Origin: Candidatus Latescibacterota bacterium
GTDB taxonomy: Bacteria; Latescibacterota; UBA2968; GCA-2709665
Length of the DNA: 64,000 nt
Direction of reading: 5' to 3'
Assembly (NCBI GenBank): GCA_963667175.2
Contig: CAXXXF010000017.1
Span: 39,044-103,043, forward strand
In this document: piece by piece, positions 2 through 58,145 of the stretch
How positions within the stretch are numbered: the stretch's first letter is position 1
Layout: each line of letters starts with the position of its first letter
The notes under the pieces: model-generated
What the model was told of the DNA's origin: nothing
Seen by the model: only the letters and a program-made list of their open reading frames with translations
The model's database searches: none
Program-made: the position numbers and the translations under genes

Positions 2-1852
2 GAATCCATCGGATCGGGTCTTGCGCGCGCGGCGTTGGCCGGCAAGGTCAACGGCCGGGCCATGGATCTCACAACGTCACTGGATGGCAACGCCGACCTG
101 GAGATTCTCACGTTCTCCAGCGACGCCGGCAAGGAAGTGTACTGGCACAGCACGGCCCATATTATGGCGCAAGCGGTACAGGACCTGTTTCCGGACGTGA
201 AAGTCACGCTGGGCCCGCCCATCGAAAAAGGCTTCTATTACGACTTCGACCGGGAAAAGCCATTCACGCCGGATGAATTGCGCCGGATCGAAGTCCGCAT
301 GCGCGAACTCATTGCGGAAGCCCAGCCGTTCGAACGCCAGGAGATCACCCGGGAGGCCGCGATCGAACTGTTCGGAGCGCGCGGCGAAACCTACAAACTG
401 GAAATCCTGGAGGAAATCGAACCCGGCGAGACCATCAGCATCTATAAGAATGCAGACAAGTGGCTGGACCTCTGCCGTGGGCCGCATGTCCCCGACACCG
501 GCCGCATCAAGTCGGTCAAACTGCTGAGTTCCTCGGGCGCATACTGGCGGGGAGACGAAAACAACGTGATGCTCCAGCGCATCTACGGCATCTCGTTTCC
601 GGGCCGGAAAGACCTCGACGCCTATTTGGAGTACCTGGAAGAAGCCAGGAACCGCGACCACCGCGACATCGGCACGCGCCTCGATCTCTTTTCGATCAAC
701 GATACCGCCGGACCCGGCCTGGTGCTCTGGCATCCAAAAGGCGCGCGAATCAGGAACCAGATCGAAGACTTCTGGCGCGAAGCGCACTACGACGGCGGAT
801 ACGATCTGGTCGGTTCGCCCCATATCGGCCGCTCCCGGCTCTGGGAAACCAGCGGCCATCTGGATTTTTTCCAGGAGAACATGTACCCCCCGATGGATGT
901 CGACGGTCAGGCCTATTTCGCCAAACCGATGAATTGCCCCTTCCACATCCTCATCTACAAATCGAGGCGGCGCAGTTACCGGGAGCTTCCCTTTCGATGG
1001 GCGGAGCTGGGCACCGTCTACCGCTACGAAATGGTCGGCACGCTTCACGGCCTGCTGCGGGTGCGCGGATTCACCCAGGACGACGCCCATATCTTCTGTC
1101 GCCCGGACCAGGTGGAGGAGGAAGTCGCACGGGTTATCGACTTCACGATGTTCATCCTCAAGTCATTCGGCTTTGAGGACTTCAACGTTTACATCTCGAC
1201 GCGGCCCGATAAAGCGGTTGGAGATCCCGCCGACTGGGATAGAGCCACCGACGCCCTCAAGCGGGCCGTCGACACCCAGAAGTTGCCGTATCGGATCGAC
1301 GAAGGCGCCGGCGCATTCTACGGCCCCAAGATCGACGTGACCATCAACGACGCCCTGAACAGGGAATGGCAATGCACCACCATTCAGTTTGATTTTAACC
1401 TTCCGGAACGCTTCGACCTCAGCTTTGTCGGACCCGACGGGAAATTTCACCGCCCGTATATGGTCCATCGCGCCCTTCTGGGCGCGATGGAACGGTTCTT
1501 CGGCCTGCTGATCGAGCATTACGCGGGGAACTTCCCGCTCTGGCTTGCGCCCGTGCAGGCCGTCGTACTTCCCGTATCCGATCCCTTTGTCGAATACGCC
1601 GGCCAGGTCGCCAGCCGCCTCAACAGCGCGGGTCTCCGCGCCGAAGTGGACCCGCAGGACGCGAAACTCGGATTCAAGATCCGCGAGGCCGAAGTGCAGA
1701 AAATTCCGTACATGATCATTGTGGGAAAACAGGAAGTCGCCGCGCAGACCATTTCGGTCCGCAGACATGGCGCCGGCGACCTCGGAAGGATGTCCACGCT
1801 CAATCTGATTGCCAGGATGCAGCAGGAAGTCGAGACGAAGAGCGCCACCTGA
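2..1852 (+). CDS. thrS: threonine--tRNA ligase, 5' end cut by the window edge
   Basis: The frame is open from base 2 (ESIGSGLARAALAGKVNG, end of the TGS domain). It is collinear with E. coli ThrRS and has class II motifs FRWAELGTVYRYE, RVRGFTQDDAHIF and GAFYGPKID. Confidence 0.97.
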   Translation, partial: ESIGSGLARAALAGKVNGRAMDLTTSLDGNADLEILTFSSDAGKEVYWHSTAHIMAQAVQDLFPDVKVTLGPPIEKGFYYDFDREKPFTPDELRRIEVRMRELIAEAQPFERQEITREAAIELFGARGETYKLEILEEIEPGETISIYKNADKWLDLCRGPHVPDTGRIKSVKLLSSSGAYWRGDENNVMLQRIYGISFPGRKDLDAYLEYLEEARNRDHRDIGTRLDLFSINDTAGPGLVLWHPKGARIRNQIEDFWREAHYDGGYDLVGSPHIGRSRLWETSGHLDFFQENMYPPMDVDGQAYFAKPMNCPFHILIYKSRRRSYRELPFRWAELGTVYRYEMVGTLHGLLRVRGFTQDDAHIFCRPDQVEEEVARVIDFTMFILKSFGFEDFNVYISTRPDKAVGDPADWDRATDALKRAVDTQKLPYRIDEGAGAFYGPKIDVTINDALNREWQCTTIQFDFNLPERFDLSFVGPDGKFHRPYMVHRALLGAMERFFGLLIEHYAGNFPLWLAPVQAVVLPVSDPFVEYAGQVASRLNSAGLRAEVDPQDAKLGFKIREAEVQKIPYMIIVGKQEVAAQTISVRRHGAGDLGRMSTLNLIARMQQEVETKSAT

Positions 1853-1910
1853 GTCCCTATTTTTCCAATTTGGCCCAAGACGGCACGGACCAATTTCGGA
1901 GGTGATCGGT

Positions 1911-2447
1911 ATCAACAGAGGTCGAAGAGTTTTCAGAGATCGAAAGCAGGAAAGAGCGCCCCGCGTCAACGAGCAGATCCGCGTACCTCAAATCCGACTG
2001 GTCGACAAAGACGGCGAACAGGTCGGCATTGTTGAAACCCGGAAGGCGATGGAAATGGCAATGGAAGCCGAACTCGACCTCGTCGAAGTCGCTCCCAACG
2101 CCCGCCCGCCGGTCTGCCGGATCATGAATTACGGAAAGTACCGATATGAGCAGAGCAAGAAGCAGAAGAAAGGCAAAAAGAGCGGGTCGCAACTGAAAGA
2201 GATACGTCTGGGCCCCCGAATCAGCGACCACGATTACGAATTCAAGATGCGCCACGCCGAAAACTTCCTGAAACACCGGCACAAAGTCAGGATCACCGTG
2301 GAGTTCCGCGGCCGGCAGAATATGTATCGAATGCAGGGCAGACAGCTGCTGGAACGCGCCGAAGAGGACCTCCGGGAGATCGGCGCCGCCGAAGTGCCTA
2401 TCAAGGACGAGGGTCGCAACATCGTCATCATTATCGCTCCGAAATAA
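1911..2447 (+). CDS. infC: translation initiation factor IF-3; start uncertain (ATC 1911 after GGAGG 1898-1902, or GTG 1902)
   Basis: VNEQIRVPQIRLVDKDGEQVGIV...PPVCRIMNYGKYRYE is collinear with E. coli IF3. There is no ATG near the expected N-terminus, and IF3 genes classically use rare start codons. Confidence 0.88.
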   Translation: MNRGRRVFRDRKQERAPRVNEQIRVPQIRLVDKDGEQVGIVETRKAMEMAMEAELDLVEVAPNARPPVCRIMNYGKYRYEQSKKQKKGKKSGSQLKEIRLGPRISDHDYEFKMRHAENFLKHRHKVRITVEFRGRQNMYRMQGRQLLERAEEDLREIGAAEVPIKDEGRNIVIIIAPK

Positions 2448-2588
2448 CGTTCGCCGACGGCGCCGGCACACGAGGAATCGGAACGCGACGCCGGGGAAGA
2501 CCCGGACGTCTCCGGTTCGCCCGGTCCGGCCCTTCGTCGCCGCCCCTCTCGCGTGCGGCGAAATACGAACCTTCCCAAGGAGTTGGAC

Positions 2589-2783
2589 GTGCCTAAAATG
2601 AAAACCCATCGGGGAGCCGCGAAACGGTTCAAGCGCCGGAAATCCGGTACGATCGGCCGCGGAAAGTCAACGGTCACGCATAACCTGACGAGCAAGAGCA
2701 GCAAACGCAAGATGCACCTTCGAAAGTCCACGGTGGTGCACAAATCGGACCAGGACCGGGTACAGCGCCTGCTGCCCAACTGA
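2589..2783 (+). CDS. rpmI: 50S ribosomal protein L35
   Basis: [23 protein letters not shown] at 2589 sits 6 nt after AAGGAG. It has the canonical position after infC. Confidence 0.93.
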
Positions 2784-2900
2784 CAGGCCGCTACGCCCCG
2801 AAAACGCAAGTACTCTTCCCGCGTCCGTTCGGATTTTGAGTTGAGGCTACGGCGGACCGGAGGCAAAGACCGCGCCAGGCGTTGCCAGGAGACCATCGAT

Positions 2901-3254
2901 ATGGCCAGAACAACGAATAGCGTCGCATCCCGGCGCAGACGGAAAAAGATCCTGAAAGCCGCGCGAGGCTACCGCGGAGGACGGAGCAAGCTCTATCGCA
3001 CCGCGGACGACGCCGTTCATCGTGCGCTTTCCTATGCATACAGGGACCGTCGCCAGAAAAAGAGGAATTTCCGCTCGCTGTGGATCGTTCGAATCAATGC
3101 CGCGGCCCGGCTTAACGGACTCTCGTACAGCAGCCTGATCAACGGTCTCAAGAAAGCCGATATAGCCGTTGACAGAAAAGTCCTGGCCAACCTCGCCGTC
3201 ACGGATGCAACTGCGTTCACGGCGCTTGCGGAACAGGCTCGACGAGCCCTGTAG
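2901..3254 (+). CDS. rplT: 50S ribosomal protein L20
   Basis: [33 protein letters not shown]...[10 protein letters not shown]; infC-rpmI-rplT synteny. Confidence 0.95.
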
Positions 3255-3348
3255 ATCGCCCTCCAAATCGCGGAATCCTGTCGAAAAGACGTTCCCTGGA
3301 ATCCACCCCGATTCCGTTCTCGTTCCCCGTACAAACGGTATCCCGCCC

Positions 3349-3377
3349 TTGACTTTGGGCCATGGAGGGTTTACATT
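3349..3377 (+). promoter_or_regulatory. sigma70-like promoter TTGACT-N17-TACATT
   Basis: Hexamers at 3349-3354 and 3372-3377 with exact 17-nt spacing. It lies 245 nt upstream of the next CDS. Confidence 0.4.
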
Positions 3378-3622
3378 GCTTAGCAGCCCGCAGATAAAGT
3401 CCATCCGGGCTACGTCCGGCTCTTGTGACCGAATGACGGCGTTGCCTGCCTGTGCGTGTCCGCACGCAGACAGGCACGCCTTGTCTTCGGCCACAATGAC
3501 TCGGCTTCGCCTGCAGAGCGACTTTTTCAACGGACTGTTAGCGTGCGGATACACACGCGGAATTATGCTCTCTGACTGCACAGACGCGCCGAAAACGACG
3601 TCATCCATGAAAGGGTGAGACC

Positions 3623-4276
3623 ATGGAAGCGCAAGATCGGGCAAACGAACAGCCGGAGTCGGGGATCGGGGACGACGAACCTTTCGAATCCGACGGCCAG
3701 ACGGACGAGACGACGCAAACAGACGACCAGGAACACGTACAGCTGGACCTCCAGGATCGGGACGAAGACGCCATCGAGGCTGTCCACGTGACAGACGCAC
3801 AGACGGAATTCAAGGACCCCGAAGGCGGACAGCTCGATCTCCAGGACCGGCGGGACGAGTCCCTCGAATCCGTCGCCCATTCGGACGAGCCTGCGGCTAC
3901 GGTGGAAACTGAAGAACCGCGGGTTGAAACGGAGGATGGCACAGACGGGCAGGCGGACGCCGGCGACCATGAAGAGGCCCGGATGGAGTCGGAAAACCGG
4001 GTGTCCGAGCAGCTGGATCACCTGATCAGTGAAATCGACCGCGCCGTCGGGATTATCCGGCAGTTGCGACAGCGGACCGCCGAACTCGACGAGAGAAACC
4101 GGGAACTTCAGGAACGACTGGAAAACAAGGACCAGGTGATCTCCGGATTGCAGGCAGAAAGGGAACGTCTCCGGTCCATCTACGATAATAATGCATCGCT
4201 GATTGAAAACAAGGAGGAGATCCAACGCAAAATCGAAACCATGATCTCGCGTCTGGATTCAGTGAATACAGCGTAA
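3623..4276 (+). CDS. acidic protein with C-terminal coiled coil (ZapB-like?), directly upstream of zapA
   Basis: The N-terminal D/E-rich half has an internal duplication (QLDLQDRDEDAIEAV / QLDLQDRRDESLESV). The C-terminal heptad-rich segment is RTAELDERNRELQERLENKDQVISGLQAERERL. Confidence 0.5.
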   Translation: MEAQDRANEQPESGIGDDEPFESDGQTDETTQTDDQEHVQLDLQDRDEDAIEAVHVTDAQTEFKDPEGGQLDLQDRRDESLESVAHSDEPAATVETEEPRVETEDGTDGQADAGDHEEARMESENRVSEQLDHLISEIDRAVGIIRQLRQRTAELDERNRELQERLENKDQVISGLQAERERLRSIYDNNASLIENKEEIQRKIETMISRLDSVNTA

Positions 4277-4328
4277 AACAGCACCGCCGACGTCCACGCC
4301 GCGCCACGGAGCTTCACGCTGCGTCCGG

Positions 4329-4628
4329 ATGTCCCGAGGTCTCATGTCTGAACAACCGCTAATACGCGTCCAGATCTTCGGCACCGAATACAACGTCCAC
4401 TCGGAAGGCGACCCGGATCACGCCCGGGCCGTGGCACGGTACGTCGACCAGAAAATGCGTGACGTCGCAAACGCCATTTCACTTCGTTCGGTTGCCAAGA
4501 TTGCAGTCGTAGCCGCCGTCAATCTCGCGCACGAACTGCTCAAAGAGGAAGAAGCCAGTCGAAAGTTGGGTAAGACCCTGACGGACAAGACCCACAATCT
4601 TGCCTCTTTAACAAACCGGATTGCGTAG
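4329..4628 (+). CDS. zapA: cell division protein ZapA (alternative start ATG 4344)
   Basis: IRVQIFGTEYNVHSEGDPDHARAVARYVDQKMRDV...AVVAAVNLAHELLKE matches the ZapA pattern. Confidence 0.8.
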   Translation: MSRGLMSEQPLIRVQIFGTEYNVHSEGDPDHARAVARYVDQKMRDVANAISLRSVAKIAVVAAVNLAHELLKEEEASRKLGKTLTDKTHNLASLTNRIA

Positions 4629-4831
4629 AGACGACCTCGATCATATAGGTCGTGCCTGCAATTCCGCACACCCAGGCCGGATCAACGATTCCGGTGCCGC
4701 CTGCTGCGTTCATCTGAAACCATCCGGAGCGATCACCGCGACCCGGACGGGACGTGCGGAACCGGATGAGCGCAAGCGGGTTTTTTTTGTTTACGAGTTG
4801 ATGCGTGGTCCCAATTGACGTGGAGGCCGAA

Positions 4832-6418
4832 ATGAACCTGCCGATAGACACGACCATGGAAGTCGTGACGATCATCATGCTGTCGGCCGGGCTGCTTATA
4901 CTGGGATTCATCCTGGGTTGGCTGATCAGCGGCAAGATCGCGAAGCGCAAGATTCATCGCGCCGAACTCTCCGCGGAGAAAATTCTGGAAGATGCCCAGA
5001 CCGAAGCCGACGCAATGAAACGGACGGCGGTCCTGGAGGCCAAAGACAGGATACAGCAGGAGCGGCTCCGGTTCGATCAGGAACTGAAAGAAAAACGCGA
5101 TCGGTCCAACAGGGAAGAGTCGAAACTGAGCAGCCTCAGACGGCAACTCGACAAACGTGCGGACCTGTTGAACGACAAGGAAAAACTGGCTACGGAGAAA
5201 GATGAGGGGCTCCGGCTTCTGGAGGAGCAGCTCGCGGACCGGTCACGGGAACTTGAACAGGGCCAGCTGAGGCAGAACAGGCGCCTGGAACAGATCGCGG
5301 GTCTTACGAAGGAAGAGGCAAAACGGGTCCTGATGGCCAACATGGAAGCGGATGCGGAACGCGATGCGGAATGGCGGCTGAAGGAAATCCGCGACGACGC
5401 ACTCGTCCGGGCAAACGATGAAGCCCGGGAAATCATCGCCGGAGCGATTCAACGATTGGCCGCGGACCATACCATCGAGTCCACCGTTGCGGTCGTACGC
5501 CTGCCTTCCGACGAGATGAAGGGGCGGATTATCGGGCGTGAGGGCCGAAATATCCGGGCCTTTGAAATGGCCACGGGAGTGGACGTCACGATCGACGACA
5601 CGCCCGAAGCGGTCATCCTGTCGGGGTTCGACCCCATCCGCCGCGCGATCGCGCAGATTGCCATGGAACAACTGATTCTGGACGGGCGCATCCACCCGGG
5701 ACGGATCGAAGAAATCGTACAGAAGTCGAGGGAGTCGATTCAGGAGGTCATGCACGATGCCGGCGTCCAGGCGGCATTCGACGTGGGCGTACCGGGCCTG
5801 CACGATCGTCTCGTCGCTTGCCTGGGCCGACTCAAATATCGCACGAGCTACGGTCAGAACGTACTGAATCACAGCAAAGAGGTGGCCTTTCTAGCGGGTA
5901 TGATGGCCACTTCGCTTGGACTCGACGCCCAGCTGACCAAACGCGCGGGATTGCTTCACGACGTCGGCAAAGGGTTGGCGCACGAAGCCGAGGGCACGTA
6001 CGGAGAGAATGGCGCTGACCTGGCGCGCAAATACGGTGAAGACACGATTGTGATAAACGCGATCGAGGCGCATCATGGAGATTCGGACCCGATTTCGCCG
6101 GTTGCCGTACTGGTCGACGCGGCCGACACCGTTTCCAGGTCGCGGCCGGGCGCGCAGCGCGAACAGATCGAGAATTACGTCCGACGCCTGGAACGACTGG
6201 AGTCCATCGCCAAGATGATCCAGGGCGTCGAATCGGTCTTCGCCATCAAAGCCGGACAGGAGGTCCGTGTGGTGGCGGACTCCGATATGATGAGCGACGC
6301 CGACACGGAACGCCTGGCCACGCAGATCGTCTCCCGGCTCACGGAAGACGCCACCTGCCCGGGGCCGGTCAAGGTAACCGTCATCAGAGAAACGCGTTCG
6401 GTGGACTTTGCGCGCTGA
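4832..6418 (+). CDS. rny: ribonuclease Y (N-terminal TM, coiled coil, KH, HD domains)
   Basis: ATG 4832 follows GGAGG. KH motif GRIIGREGRNIRAFE; HD motif LLHDVGK...IEAHHGD. Confidence 0.93.
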   Translation: MNLPIDTTMEVVTIIMLSAGLLILGFILGWLISGKIAKRKIHRAELSAEKILEDAQTEADAMKRTAVLEAKDRIQQERLRFDQELKEKRDRSNREESKLSSLRRQLDKRADLLNDKEKLATEKDEGLRLLEEQLADRSRELEQGQLRQNRRLEQIAGLTKEEAKRVLMANMEADAERDAEWRLKEIRDDALVRANDEAREIIAGAIQRLAADHTIESTVAVVRLPSDEMKGRIIGREGRNIRAFEMATGVDVTIDDTPEAVILSGFDPIRRAIAQIAMEQLILDGRIHPGRIEEIVQKSRESIQEVMHDAGVQAAFDVGVPGLHDRLVACLGRLKYRTSYGQNVLNHSKEVAFLAGMMATSLGLDAQLTKRAGLLHDVGKGLAHEAEGTYGENGADLARKYGEDTIVINAIEAHHGDSDPISPVAVLVDAADTVSRSRPGAQREQIENYVRRLERLESIAKMIQGVESVFAIKAGQEVRVVADSDMMSDADTERLATQIVSRLTEDATCPGPVKVTVIRETRSVDFAR

Positions 6419-25484: not shown

Positions 25485-27170
25485 TTACGATTGCGTTCCG
25501 GCGATATCGATGTTGACCTCAAAGGCGCTAACCGGTACGGATATGCCCCAGTTCTCCAGGACCTCGGGATGGATTTCGCCGATGATGCCGAAGCCATTCC
25601 CGTCCAACCTGATTTCGCCCGCCCGCCCCGGCAGAAACGTGGGGTGCTCGGACGGCGTGAGGCTGTAGTCGAATCCGAGGTAGTAAGCCAGTGCTTCCAG
25701 GTGGCTCTGAATCCCCGAGAGAGTGGCGTCGGCGTGGGCCTCCAGCGCCGCCAGGCAGATTTCGGTACGGGTGCCGTAGAGCTCGTCCCGCGCGATGACG
25801 CAGACTTCGCCCACCTCGAAGATATGATGGGGATACGGGGCTTTCCGGCTCGCGGCTTCCACGCGGAGAAGCCCGGGCAGCAGGGCGTTCCGAACCGCGC
25901 TGTAATTCTCGGACATGGGGTTGGAGATCTCGACAATCCTCGCGCCGGTGTCGCAAACGCGCTCCGTCAGGTCGGCGCGCGAGGATAGAATTGGCAGGAA
26001 GACTTCCTGGAACCCGCATCCGACCATCAGGCCGCGGATGCGGTCGGAGAGGTCCTCCTCGGGCGCGGACTTGCCGACGGTGAAATCGTGCGGCAATTCG
26101 GGTTCGAAGTTGTCGAAGCCCACGGCCACGATCACGTCTTCGATGAGGTCCACGGGATGGAGGATATCGTCCCGGTACGGCGCCGGCCGGGCCCGGACGC
26201 GGTTGCGGTCGAGCGCGACGTCCCGGTACCCCATGGCGGCCAGGGCGCGTTCGATGCTTCCGTTGTCGATGGCGCCGCCGATCACGCGCCGGAGGTCGTC
26301 CAGGTCGACTTCGACGGTTTCGGTCATATCCAGAGGGCACCGGATCTCGCGCCCGCGCGGCGTATCATAAGGATAGATGGTGTTTACGGGCAGGATACGG
26401 CCTCCCCGGTCGGCCATGTTGGCGGCCATGATGGCAACGGAAAGCAGCACGGCGTCGAGTTCGGTTCCGGTGGCCTCGCAGAAGAGAAACGAATCGCCGA
26501 CCTCCACCGCGCCCGGGTCCCGGCTGTTGATCACGGGAGGCATGGAGAGGACCTCGCCCCGGCTGTCGGAGATGAGGGGAAAGGCGCCGAAGCCCTCCAG
26601 CAGGTGCGCGTACGTCCGGCCCGTGGGGTGTTCGCTCAGGATATCCCGAAGGGTCAGCCCGGTCTCCATCCCCAGCGGCACAAATCGGGTCGCATCCGGA
26701 TCGGCCGCGTCGTAGCGGACGGGAAAGGCGAGGTCGGAAGCGTCGTAGATGCCGATGGCCACGGCGCTTCGACCGCGCCCGTAGCCTTCCGCCAGTTTTT
26801 CCTGGGCCTCGATGAGCTGCTCGAGGGCCGCTTCGTCCACCGAGACCCCTTCGCAGGCGAAGGCGGCGACGTAGGGACGAAGGCCTTCCAGCGCGGGATC
26901 CACGCGCACTTCAAGTTCCCCCGGCGGGTCATCGAAAAACCCATAGGGTTCGTGCACGCCCTCTCGATGACCCTTGAGCAGCCGGGCGACGCCCTCCGAC
27001 GACCACAGGTCCGGCCGATTGGTATCCTTCAACTGGATCCTCAACAGGGCGCCGTCTTCGACCTTGACCTCGGCTTTGACGGCCTCGAGGGCGCGTTCGA
27101 GCTCGGGAAGGTCGTAGGTCTGACCCGCGAGCCGTTCGAGGTCTTCCCTGATCACGGTGATGGTGGGCAT
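25485..27170 (-). CDS. pheT: phenylalanine--tRNA ligase beta subunit, short archaeal/eukaryal type (561 aa)
   Basis: MPTITVIREDLERL...IQLKDTNRPDLWSSEGVARLLKG. The length and architecture are unlike the roughly 800-aa bacterial PheT. It is adjacent to pheS. Confidence 0.9.
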   Translation of the reverse strand: MPTITVIREDLERLAGQTYDLPELERALEAVKAEVKVEDGALLRIQLKDTNRPDLWSSEGVARLLKGHREGVHEPYGFFDDPPGELEVRVDPALEGLRPYVAAFACEGVSVDEAALEQLIEAQEKLAEGYGRGRSAVAIGIYDASDLAFPVRYDAADPDATRFVPLGMETGLTLRDILSEHPTGRTYAHLLEGFGAFPLISDSRGEVLSMPPVINSRDPGAVEVGDSFLFCEATGTELDAVLLSVAIMAANMADRGGRILPVNTIYPYDTPRGREIRCPLDMTETVEVDLDDLRRVIGGAIDNGSIERALAAMGYRDVALDRNRVRARPAPYRDDILHPVDLIEDVIVAVGFDNFEPELPHDFTVGKSAPEEDLSDRIRGLMVGCGFQEVFLPILSSRADLTERVCDTGARIVEISNPMSENYSAVRNALLPGLLRVEAASRKAPYPHHIFEVGEVCVIARDELYGTRTEICLAALEAHADATLSGIQSHLEALAYYLGFDYSLTPSEHPTFLPGRAGEIRLDGNGFGIIGEIHPEVLENWGISVPVSAFEVNIDIAGTQS

Positions 27171-27225: not shown

Positions 27226-28812
27226 TCAGGTCGCGGCCGGCCTGTTTTCTCTTTCGTTCCGGATCCGGTCCAGGTCCGTGCTGAACAGATCGCGGATGTC
27301 GTCTATGTCCAGGGCGACCATCGCCATCCGGTCGATGCCCAGACCCCATGCGATGACCGGAACCTCGACGCCCAGCGGGCGCGTGAGTTCGGGCCGGAAC
27401 AGGCCGGCGCCGCCGAATTCGATCCAGCCCAGCGACGGGTGCCTGGCCTGGAGCTCGACCGAGGGCTCGGTGAACGGGAAATAATCCGGCACAAACCGGC
27501 ATTCGTCCGACTGCGCGATCTCCAGCGCAAACAGCTTCAGCAGGCCCAGCAGACTCCGGAAATTGATGCCCTCACCCAGGACGATCCCCTCCACCTGGAA
27601 GAAGTCGGCGGCGTGGGTGGCGTCGACGTCGTCGTACCGGAAGCATCGCGCAACCGCGAAATACTTCCCCGGGACGTTCGGTCCGGAAGCAAGCGTACGG
27701 CCCGACAGCGCGGTACCCTGGCTGCGCAGGATGAGGCGGCGCGCGCGGGCCGGACTGAATTCGTACCGCCAGCCTCGGGAGCCCGTGTCGCCGCCGTCGG
27801 CGTGGGCGGCGGCCACGTTGGAGAAGAAAGGTTCTTCGGGCGCATTCGAACGGATGGGCTCCTTGACGTAATAGGCGTCATGGATATTTCGCGCCGCGTG
27901 AAACTGCGGCATGAACAGAGCATCCATATTCCAGAATTCGGTTTCCACCAGCGGGCCCTTCATTTCCTCGAACCCGAGAGACAGCAGTTTGCGCCGGACA
28001 CCGTCGAGATAGGCGCGGTACGGGTGCAGGCGGCCGATGAGAATACGCGGGGGCTTGATGCTGATGTCGTACCGCCGGAACGAGACGTCTCTCCAGTCGC
28101 CCGACTGCAACATCTCCGGCGTGAGGCGGGAGACCTCGTCGCCCGTCAGCCCGGATTCCAGAATGCGCTCCAGCGTACCCCTACCGGCCGGCGTAAGCCT
28201 GTACGTGCGTTCCAGGCGTTCGTCCACTCGGATGGCGGCCTTGCCCTTGCCACGTTTGCTCGTTCTTTCCAGGATATAGGACTGAATCTCTTCGGTAAAG
28301 TCGTCGAGATTCAGCGCGGCACCGTCGCCGGCCTCCCGAAAGCGCCCGAACAGCCCCGGCACGAGCCTTTCGGTATAGAAGGCGGCTCTGTCGGGATCCG
28401 CGATGCGGATGGCGGCGCCGTCCTGCCTGATTGTGCCTTCGGCCTTCAGCCCGCCGTATGCGCTGCCCCATTCTCCGCGGTCGAAGCGGGTATCCGCCTG
28501 GAGGTGCTTCAACGTGGGCGCCGGCTCTTTATTGGCGCGCAGCAAAAGCGCGGCCTCCGGCGTCGCACCGATGCCGGCCAGGGCGACCCCCGATTCCGTG
28601 AGGCTGACGGTCGAGACCGTGGCTTCACCGGCGACGTCGAGGAGACCCTTGGAACGCAGCCATTCCAGGGCGCGCCGGACCTGTCCGGAACCGATGCCCG
28701 CGGCTTCGGGCAGGACGGCGTCGGTCAGTTCGTGTTCCTCGCCGGACTCGAAGGCGCGCAGCGTCTTGATTTCGAGGGCGTGAAGGGACGACAGGTCGAT
28801 CGTTGGATCCAC
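27226..28812 (-). CDS. pheS: phenylalanine--tRNA ligase alpha subunit, long archaeal/eukaryal type (528 aa), GTG start
   Basis: About 200 aa of N-terminal helical/winged-helix-like extension. Class II core FFQVEGIVLGEG...FPFTEPSVEL...GAGLFRPEL...AWGLGIDRMAMV. Confidence 0.9.
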   Translation of the reverse strand: MDPTIDLSSLHALEIKTLRAFESGEEHELTDAVLPEAAGIGSGQVRRALEWLRSKGLLDVAGEATVSTVSLTESGVALAGIGATPEAALLLRANKEPAPTLKHLQADTRFDRGEWGSAYGGLKAEGTIRQDGAAIRIADPDRAAFYTERLVPGLFGRFREAGDGAALNLDDFTEEIQSYILERTSKRGKGKAAIRVDERLERTYRLTPAGRGTLERILESGLTGDEVSRLTPEMLQSGDWRDVSFRRYDISIKPPRILIGRLHPYRAYLDGVRRKLLSLGFEEMKGPLVETEFWNMDALFMPQFHAARNIHDAYYVKEPIRSNAPEEPFFSNVAAAHADGGDTGSRGWRYEFSPARARRLILRSQGTALSGRTLASGPNVPGKYFAVARCFRYDDVDATHAADFFQVEGIVLGEGINFRSLLGLLKLFALEIAQSDECRFVPDYFPFTEPSVELQARHPSLGWIEFGGAGLFRPELTRPLGVEVPVIAWGLGIDRMAMVALDIDDIRDLFSTDLDRIRNERENRPAAT

Positions 28813-28884
28813 GTGATTGCTCCCTGGAATCGGTGCTCGAGATCGGCCGAAGACGATGCGGCCGGACGTCCGGGCCGCGGATAT

Positions 28885-29200
28885 AAAAAAAACCTTCCAT
28901 CCCCATAGGGACGAAAGGACGTGACGTCTTCCGCGGTACCACCCTATTTGCGCCCTTCAGGCGCCGCTTGACAGGCGGCCGTTACCGCCCCTCCCTGTTG
29001 TCGGCGGGAGACACCGGCGCCGCCTAGTAACGGTTGCCGGTTTCCTTTTTTCTAACCTGCACTGCAGCCGGCAATCGCATTCAGCGTTGCAGCTCGAGAG
29101 GGAACTTCGGCCGTTCATGCCGCGAGGGCGCTTTCAGTCCGGGGCGCCCCCTCCCTTTCCGGTTGGGGACGGCTTACTTTCCTCCGTCATCGCTTTGGGT
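28885..29200 (-). promoter_or_regulatory. T-box riboswitch leader (candidate Phe specifier UUC) with terminator/antiterminator, upstream of pheS
   Basis: Minus strand: GCGATGA...GGAAAGTA at the Stem I base, then CCGTTA. The T-box core AAATAGGGTGGTACCGCGG lies at 28931-28949. The terminator CCTTTCGTCCC-TATG-GGGATGGAAGG plus T8 lies at 28885-28918. TAGGG/CCCTA antiterminator pairing shares a strand with the terminator. Confidence 0.85.
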
Positions 29201-29203
29201 GAG

Positions 29204-29232
29204 AACATAGGATTTTGACCATCATCTGTCAA
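29204..29232 (-). promoter_or_regulatory. sigma70 consensus-like promoter TTGACA-N17-TATGTT driving the T-box leader
   Basis: Minus-strand hexamers at 29232-29227 and 29209-29204, immediately upstream of the leader. Confidence 0.6.

Positions 29233-43469: not shown

Positions 43470-44227
<758 letters not shown>

Positions 44228-57384: not shown

Positions 57385-58145
<761 letters not shown>

Follow-up and report, generated by a model that had tools for sequence, protein, structure and literature searches.

A putative tRNA-Phe-specific class-I T-box upstream of the archaeal-type pheST operon in an uncultured Latescibacterota bacterium

Introduction

The only phenylalanyl-tRNA synthetase (PheRS) operon in the genome of an uncultured Latescibacterota bacterium is preceded by a leader that is almost certainly a class-I transcriptional T-box specific for tRNA-Phe, providing feedback control of that operon. 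The leader extends for ~310 nt between a promoter and an 11-bp GC-rich hairpin with a U8 tract, on the minus strand of the window, here meaning the whole 64,000-nucleotide stretch of DNA that was analysed (Table 1). Direct observation covers every sequence and structural element of the leader and how these covary, the presence of a matching tRNA, the relative energies of the two conformers and the gene context. There is little doubt that the T-box is also functional, with tRNA binding and switching expected by homology to studied T-boxes. The mechanism itself is an ordinary one, with nothing new in it.

Identification of the leader

A permissive Rfam scan matches the region to RF00230 from end to end (model positions 1-219), with 71.5 bits and an E value of 1.6e-15. 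The same single match is returned genome-wide (E 3.4e-15), making this the sole T-box in the genome. A default Rfam scan of the window does not list the T-box, its score falling short of the gathering score of 93 bits. The window copy scores below that value because the RF00230 alignment must absorb lineage-specific inserts of 31 and 48 nt; sister-family leaders of the orthologous gene reach 97-111 bits and exceed it. The sequence-only reading had called a T-box here and proposed an RF00230 scan and a genome-wide survey as checks. Every sequence feature listed in that reading is found at its given position on the minus strand, and the full-length match is well beyond chance. Failure of the covariance model, named there as a refuting outcome, does not occur: the full model matches (E ~1e-15), sub-threshold in the window copy though orthologues pass, and the survey identifies the window leader as the only match.

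Comparative evidence comes from 40 non-redundant leaders that were collected, with 25 Stem I sequences in one alignment (A1) and 22 3' halves in another (A2). Stem I, Stem II, the IIA/B pseudoknot, Stem III and one extra hairpin are all backed by covariation, assessed in up to 25 non-redundant leaders. In A2, the 3' half (IIA, extra hairpin, Stem III and antiterminator) is 97% paired overall. Attenuation by a leader peptide, as in E. coli pheST, was also considered; none of the leader's three frames encodes a Phe-rich peptide, and this mode of control is therefore ruled out. Counted against the T-box reading are the sub-threshold score, a C following the specifier, a degenerate F-box and a host known as an uncultured MAG.

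The leader is headed by a sigma-70-type promoter that had been described from the sequence as a consensus one. A promoter is indeed present and its -35 element is perfect, but the -10 hexamer matches at only 4/6 positions, so that "consensus" slightly overstates the case. The pattern CTTGAC-17-TAnnTT is kept at constant distance in all 25 non-redundant leaders.

Table 1. Features of the pheST leader and operon, in window coordinates
Feature	Position	Strand	Details
Whole element	29232-28885	minus	promoter, class-I T-box leader and intrinsic terminator, upstream of pheS-pheT
Promoter, sigma-70-type	29204..29232	-	-35 TTGACA (29232-29227), 17-nt spacer, -10 TATGTT (29209-29204); scored 10/12
Stem I	29091..29195	-	RF00230 alignment and covariation on A1
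Stem I base	29193-29175	-	GCGAUGA...GGAAAGUA
Stem I K-turn	29191-29187 and about 29096-29094	-	GAUGA/CGA
Specifier loop	29181-29175 / 29108-29101	-	GAAAGUA / GAAGUUCC; S-turn AGUA/GAA
Specifier	29104-29102	-	UUC (Phe), then one unpaired C (29101); context CCGAAGUUCCC
AG bulge	29158-29151	-	AAAGGGAG
Stem I distal helix and loop	29151-29124	-	
Stem II	29017..29090	-	closing helix GCAACGCU/GGCGGCGC, S-turn GAA...ACUA, distal extension
Stem II distal extension	29078-29030	-	49 nt; GCGAUUGCCGG...CCGGCAACCGU
IIA/B pseudoknot	28990..29016	-	IIA CGG/CCG; IIB UCUCCC/GGGAGG
F-box-like element	29004-28998	-	CCGACAA, inside the IIA/B pseudoknot
Extra hairpin	28973..28990	-	GGGCGG-UAACGG-CCGCCU, between pseudoknot and Stem III
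RRRNG motif and Stem III	28950..28969	-	AAGCG (28969-28965); GCGCC-UGAAG-GGCGC (28964-28950), then AA
Antiterminator	28907..28949	-	AGGG / 7-nt bulge UGGUACC / GCGGA ... UUCGU / CCCU; RF00230 alignment
T-box sequence	28949-28931	-	AAAUAGGGUGGUACCGCGG; UGGU bulge at 28941-28938
Intrinsic terminator	28885..28918	-	11-bp hairpin (28918-28893) and U8 (28892-28885)
RBS and pheS	27226..28825	-	RBS AGGGAG (28825-28820); GTG at 28812; 528 aa, archaeal/eukaryal-type alpha subunit
pheT	25485..27170	-	561 aa, archaeal-type beta subunit; TIGR00471

Stem I and the UUC specifier

The Stem I structure that was tested is the one implied by the Rfam alignment, independent of the A1 sequences. Among the 25 leaders, 92% of its cells are paired and both sides have changed in 15 of the 25 base pairs; when the 3' partners are slid as a control, only 41-53% remain paired. 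The stem contains the K-turn, a specifier loop with an S-turn, the AG bulge and a distal loop, whose U-G-N-N-A sequence is invariant in the A1 leaders.

By the TBDB rule, under which the canonical specifier occupies nucleotides two to four counted back from the bulge's 3' end, UUC lies in the +0 frame, with a 4-bp helix (GGAG/CUCU) below the loop. The heptamer GAAGUUC is kept in 24/25 leaders, and the exception, L035, reads GAAUUUC (GAAUUUCC), indicating that the preceding base can change without loss of the codon. A C, rather than the usual purine, follows the specifier in 23/25 leaders, the purine being restored in L012 and L048 (UUCA). Among Phe T-boxes, 99% have UUC as their specifier (TBDB). 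A control for the register is provided by a leuS T-box found in a different Latescibacterota family: its CUC, the commonest Leu specifier, aligns at the model positions occupied here by UUC. The codon corresponds to the amino acid of the downstream pheS gene and to a host anticodon, tRNA-Phe(GAA) being encoded in the genome. The sequence-only proposal of UUC as the Phe specifier is thus upheld by its canonical frame, its conservation and the leuS control.

Stem II, IIA/B pseudoknot and extra hairpin

The closing helix of Stem II covaries among relatives, appearing as GCUCAGCU/GGUUGAGC, GCAGGGCU/GGCUCUGC and GCAGUGCU/GGUGCUGC. Its distal extension is hypervariable, ranging from about 4 to 88 nt. 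The pseudoknot that follows reads CGG-UG-UCUCCC-G-CCG-ACAAC-AGGGAGG; IIA is 94% paired in A2, and IIB covaries through the combinations CUCUC/GAGAG, GUCC/GGAC, UUGUCC/GGGCAA and UCGUUCC/GGAACGG. The F-box within it is degenerate, a variant CCG(A/U)NAA instead of CCGUUA, so that Stem II, its S-turn and the pseudoknot are all present and the F-box is present as a variant. A CCGUUA element had also been noted from the sequence. It exists (29033-29028, minus strand) but is not the F-box, lying in the 3' strand of the Stem II extension and lacking conservation among relatives. Rfam's own alignment of the Stem II/IIA region in the window, in which Stem II closes early and CCGUUA acts as the F-box, was dropped for the comparative structure.

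Between the pseudoknot and Stem III lies an extra hairpin in which 100% of A2 cells are paired and both sides have changed in 5/6 pairs. This hairpin is lineage-specific: it is an insertion to the Rfam model in L002 and is absent from the leuS T-box.

Antiterminator, terminator and the cognate tRNA

The 5'-RRRNG-Stem III-AA-3' arrangement, described as part of the aminoacylation sensor (TBDB motif), is found here as AAGCG-Stem III-AA, and both sides of Stem III have changed in 4/5 pairs of A2. The T-box sequence AGGGUGGUACCGCG is invariant in 22 leaders, with 99-100% pairing of the antiterminator. The genome has one tRNA-Phe, with anticodon GAA, discriminator A73 and an encoded CCA end. Its ACCA-3' terminus is complementary to the UGGU of the bulge, in which the variable position of UGGN is a U that matches A73, just as the sequence-only reading had anticipated from the UGGU and a discriminator A.

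The strand UUCGUCCCU serves twice, as the antiterminator 3' strand and within the 5' strand of the terminator, the 11-bp, U8-tailed hairpin to which it had been assigned from the sequence. The terminator is 92.6% paired among relatives. The two structures are mutually exclusive, and a simple energy evaluation places the terminator conformer at -26.2 kcal/mol vs -14.4 kcal/mol for the antiterminator, ~12 kcal/mol apart. This ranking suggests that termination would be the default and that the antiterminator would need stabilisation from outside.

Proposed mechanism

By analogy with studied T-boxes, transcription would start at the conserved sigma-70-type promoter, and the nascent leader would form Stem I, whose UUC specifier could pair with the GAA anticodon of tRNA-Phe while the distal platform docks onto the tRNA elbow. 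Stem II and the IIA/B pseudoknot would buttress this contact. The 3'-ACCA of an uncharged tRNA would then pair with the UGGU bulge and stabilise the weaker antiterminator, allowing RNA polymerase to read through into pheST. With charged tRNA the antiterminator would remain unstabilised, the 11-bp terminator and U8 would form, and transcription would stop.

Alternative readings of the leader

Within GAAGUUCC, UUC overlaps a GUU one nucleotide upstream, which raises the question of whether the leader senses tRNA-Val, or both Val and Phe; the sequence-only reading had named such a non-Phe codon as grounds for abandoning its own assignment. Where the sequence is GGAGG, one more G-C pair (alignment columns 18 and 100) might form, shortening the loop and shifting the frame, and tRNA-Val genes are present in the genome. 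Bacterial tRNA-Val usually has A73, which would match UGGU too. The extra pair can form in just 11 of the 25 leaders (44%), however, is replaced by A-C or A-A elsewhere and never covaries, while L035 has U in place of the G and keeps UUC. These two observations, the covariation and the L035 variant, lead us to reject the GUU register, against which it also counts that the leuS control codon sits at the UUC positions, that the tRNA-Val anticodons are GAC, TAC and CAC only, without an AAC, so that GUU would need a wobble pair, and that the downstream gene is invariably pheS. Sensing of tRNA-Val is accordingly regarded as exceedingly improbable, and the Phe register is retained.

Two further readings accept the T-box and dispute its operation. 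Given the sub-threshold Rfam score, the large insertions and the several congeners that have lost the T-box and live on with the same PheRS, the leader might be a decaying, non-functional relic carried along with the transferred gene, expression being constitutive or otherwise controlled. Such a relic is very improbable: compensatory changes keep every helix in two families; the T-box core, specifier and terminator show next to no variation; a conserved promoter is kept at constant distance; and a strong terminator before an essential single-copy gene would not persist unless read-through were regulated. Alternatively, control could be exerted on translation by sequestration of the RBS, as in the class-II T-boxes of Actinobacteria, which work in this way as a rule; the organism is GC-rich and not a Firmicute. 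Yet Stem I is full length rather than truncated, the competing helix has the form of a canonical intrinsic terminator, U8 included, and the RBS, ~60 nt downstream of the U tract, is part of neither helix. Translational control is hardly credible on these grounds, and a functional class-I transcriptional T-box for tRNA-Phe is the reading carried forward.

Regulated genes and genomic context

The operon had been read from the sequence as an archaeal/eukaryal-type pheST, an assignment that profile searches sustain. PheS scores 515 bits with NF003210 (cut-off 350) and 330 bits with TIGR00468, and matches PF01409. PheT scores 464 bits with the archaeal equivalog TIGR00471 (pheT_arch, cut-off 283) and just 112 bits with pheT_bact (cut-off 403). 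The long alpha subunit (~500 aa) and short beta subunit (~550 aa) typical of the archaeal/eukaryal enzyme are both seen here. Whole-genome searches found no second pheS or pheT, bacterial-type pheT included.

Elsewhere in the window, a plus-strand cluster (35-6418) begins with thrS-infC-rpmI-rplT (35-3254) and continues with genes for a ZapB-like protein, ZapA and RNase Y; pheST, which often follows rplT in bacteria, is absent from it. Two copies of a group II intron are additionally found on the minus strand (43470-44201 and 57454-58119), with Rfam D1-D4 matches of ~101-102 bits plus domain V/VI matches.

The cell is probably diderm, because Omp85/BamA homologues are present in the genome (best 179.6 bits). 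The sequence-only reading had mentioned an LptE-like lipoprotein. Profile searches give an LPS context no backing: the LpxC and LptD Pfam profiles find no match in the genome (95% complete), the LptD control being insensitive. The outer membrane may lack classical LPS, or LpxC and LptD may be too divergent or absent from the assembly.

Distribution in Latescibacterota

T-box matches were found in 33 of 41 relatives, almost always exactly one per genome, and 10 of these, from the sister family, lie above the gathering score (97-110 bits). In the order as a whole, 43 genomes have the T-box and it is missing from 9/52; across surveys, 10-18 leaders exceed the gathering score. All 37 fetched pheS-type loci whose contig reaches beyond the leader have pheS downstream, and the PheS homologues encoded directly downstream of the relatives' leaders are 62-94% identical. 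Among 168 Latescibacterota genomes, the archaeal PheRS and the Phe T-box are restricted to the same order. Only there, in its families f1 and f2, does pheT_arch score above its cut-off (458-527 bits); in other families it scores 75-127 bits, on ORFs that are mostly ~800 aa long, the bacterial type.

With one exception, the Phe T-box is the sole T-box of each host genome. One relative shows a second, weak match (43.7 bits) on another short contig (G019:C166:605-935), perhaps reflecting strain variation or a duplication in the assembly. The leuS T-box used above as a control, from a genome of another family in the same class (G101, L111:1501-1744), is the only other T-box type in the 168 genomes. 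It is very canonical (124.5 bits), with specifier CUC upstream of the leucyl-tRNA synthetase gene, and is unrelated to the pheS leaders.

No T-box lies upstream of pheS in L038, L043, L044 and L046 (about 1080-1500 in each), loci from some species of the sister family; the upstream sequence is unrelated and the pheS gene is of the same archaeal type. L046 shares its upstream neighbour gene with congeners that carry the T-box. Together, the T-box-less loci and this shared neighbour suggest secondary loss of the T-box. In L002, L005 and L008, the spacer between terminator and pheS exceeds that of close congeners by about 100-150 nt and contains GC-rich repeat-like sequence (e.g. GGGCGACCACAGGGGGCG...), possibly a small inserted element.

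Origin of enzyme and riboswitch

The nearest outgroup PheS proteins are those of Nitrospirota, at about 52-56% identity. Protein similarity points to no donor, identity dropping from at least 63% to about 56% with no intermediate group. Two routes by which the T-box might have reached the operon were rejected. Co-inheritance with a Nitrospirota-like PheRS is contradicted by the absence of an Rfam T-box match at 10 Nitrospirota-like PheRS loci and of the T-box core motif at 58 outgroup loci, vs 56 ingroup loci with the motif. An ancestral T-box on the displaced bacterial pheST is contradicted by the lack of any T-box in the phylum's other families except the unrelated leuS one.

From their distribution, enzyme and riboswitch appear to enter at the same node, with later losses, and no donor with both was found. 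This same-node arrival, taken with the lack of a T-box at the closest Nitrospirota PheRS genes, leads to a tentative reading, possible but somewhat short of an even chance, in which the order's ancestor acquired either the whole cassette from an unsampled donor or a T-box of a third lineage grafted onto the foreign gene. On this reading, the clade's added hairpin and its post-specifier C might reflect adaptation to the new setting.

Comparison with known systems

The leader resembles the Firmicute pheS T-boxes (e.g. Bacillus subtilis pheST; RF00230 class I) throughout. The two have in common a Stem I with K-turn, S-turn specifier loop, AG bulge and distal loop; Stem II with S-turn, the IIA/B pseudoknot, Stem III, the T-box bulge and the terminator/antiterminator pair; and the UUC specifier, the UGGU bulge and PheRS as the regulated function. 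In contrast with those systems, the host belongs to an uncultured diderm phylum, the enzyme is of the archaeal and not the bacterial type, and the leader has its additional pseudoknot-Stem III hairpin, a Stem II extension varying over ~4-88 nt, C after the specifier, a degenerate F-box and the status of its genome's only T-box.

The nearest conceptual precedent is the lysK T-box of Bacillus cereus, which controls a Pyrococcus-like class I LysRS (PMC2916919) and likewise joins a bacterial T-box to a horizontally acquired archaeal-type synthetase gene. Archaea are without T-boxes, and the authors of that study asked how regulator and gene had joined (PMC2916919). The B. cereus enzyme, however, is ancillary, a second copy in a Firmicute rich in T-boxes, whereas the Latescibacterota PheRS is sole and essential, in a lineage with no other T-box.

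Replacement of both bacterial PheRS subunits by the archaeal form is also known from Spirochaetaceae, where it marks the clade (PMC3191353). The Latescibacterota enzyme is similarly an archaeal replacement and a derived character of one clade within its phylum, the subunits of the two cases together spanning about 513-528 aa for alpha and about 514-573 aa for beta. It differs in being closest to Nitrospirota and in its regulator, a 2008 survey having found no T-box in six spirochaete genomes.

For the extra hairpin, a parallel is reported in the staphylococcal glyS T-box, whose clade-specific extra stem, Sa (PMC9177973), is likewise a conserved addition to an otherwise canonical T-box. Stem Sa lies in the terminator/antiterminator domain, in contrast to the position of the Latescibacterota hairpin between the IIA/B pseudoknot and Stem III.

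Significance

More than 95% of the T-boxes in the 2008 survey were in Firmicutes, with a few in Actinobacteria, Chloroflexi, Deinococcus and two deltaproteobacteria, and a full-text literature search found no paper naming both T-box riboswitches and Latescibacteria. T-boxes are regarded as an essentially Gram-positive device, and the present case adds a well-supported one in an uncultured Latescibacterota bacterium that encodes Omp85/BamA. Its evolutionary interest is moderate and lies in the phylogenetic setting, in the coupling to a xenologous synthetase that has no second copy, and in structural additions specific to the clade. Structural studies of the variation that a T-box can accommodate could draw on the extra hairpin, the variable tip of Stem II and the C that follows the specifier.

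The locus also offers a clear-cut natural case in which a bacterial RNA regulator is coupled to an archaeal-type synthetase gained by horizontal transfer and present in the cell as a single copy. Both enzyme and regulator trace to one branch of the phylogeny, followed by losses, and the origin and portability of the T-box module are therefore testable by phylogenetics. If the T-box was acquired by either of the proposed routes, it would have crossed from one phylum to another as a regulatory module complete in itself, ending up as the only T-box in its host.
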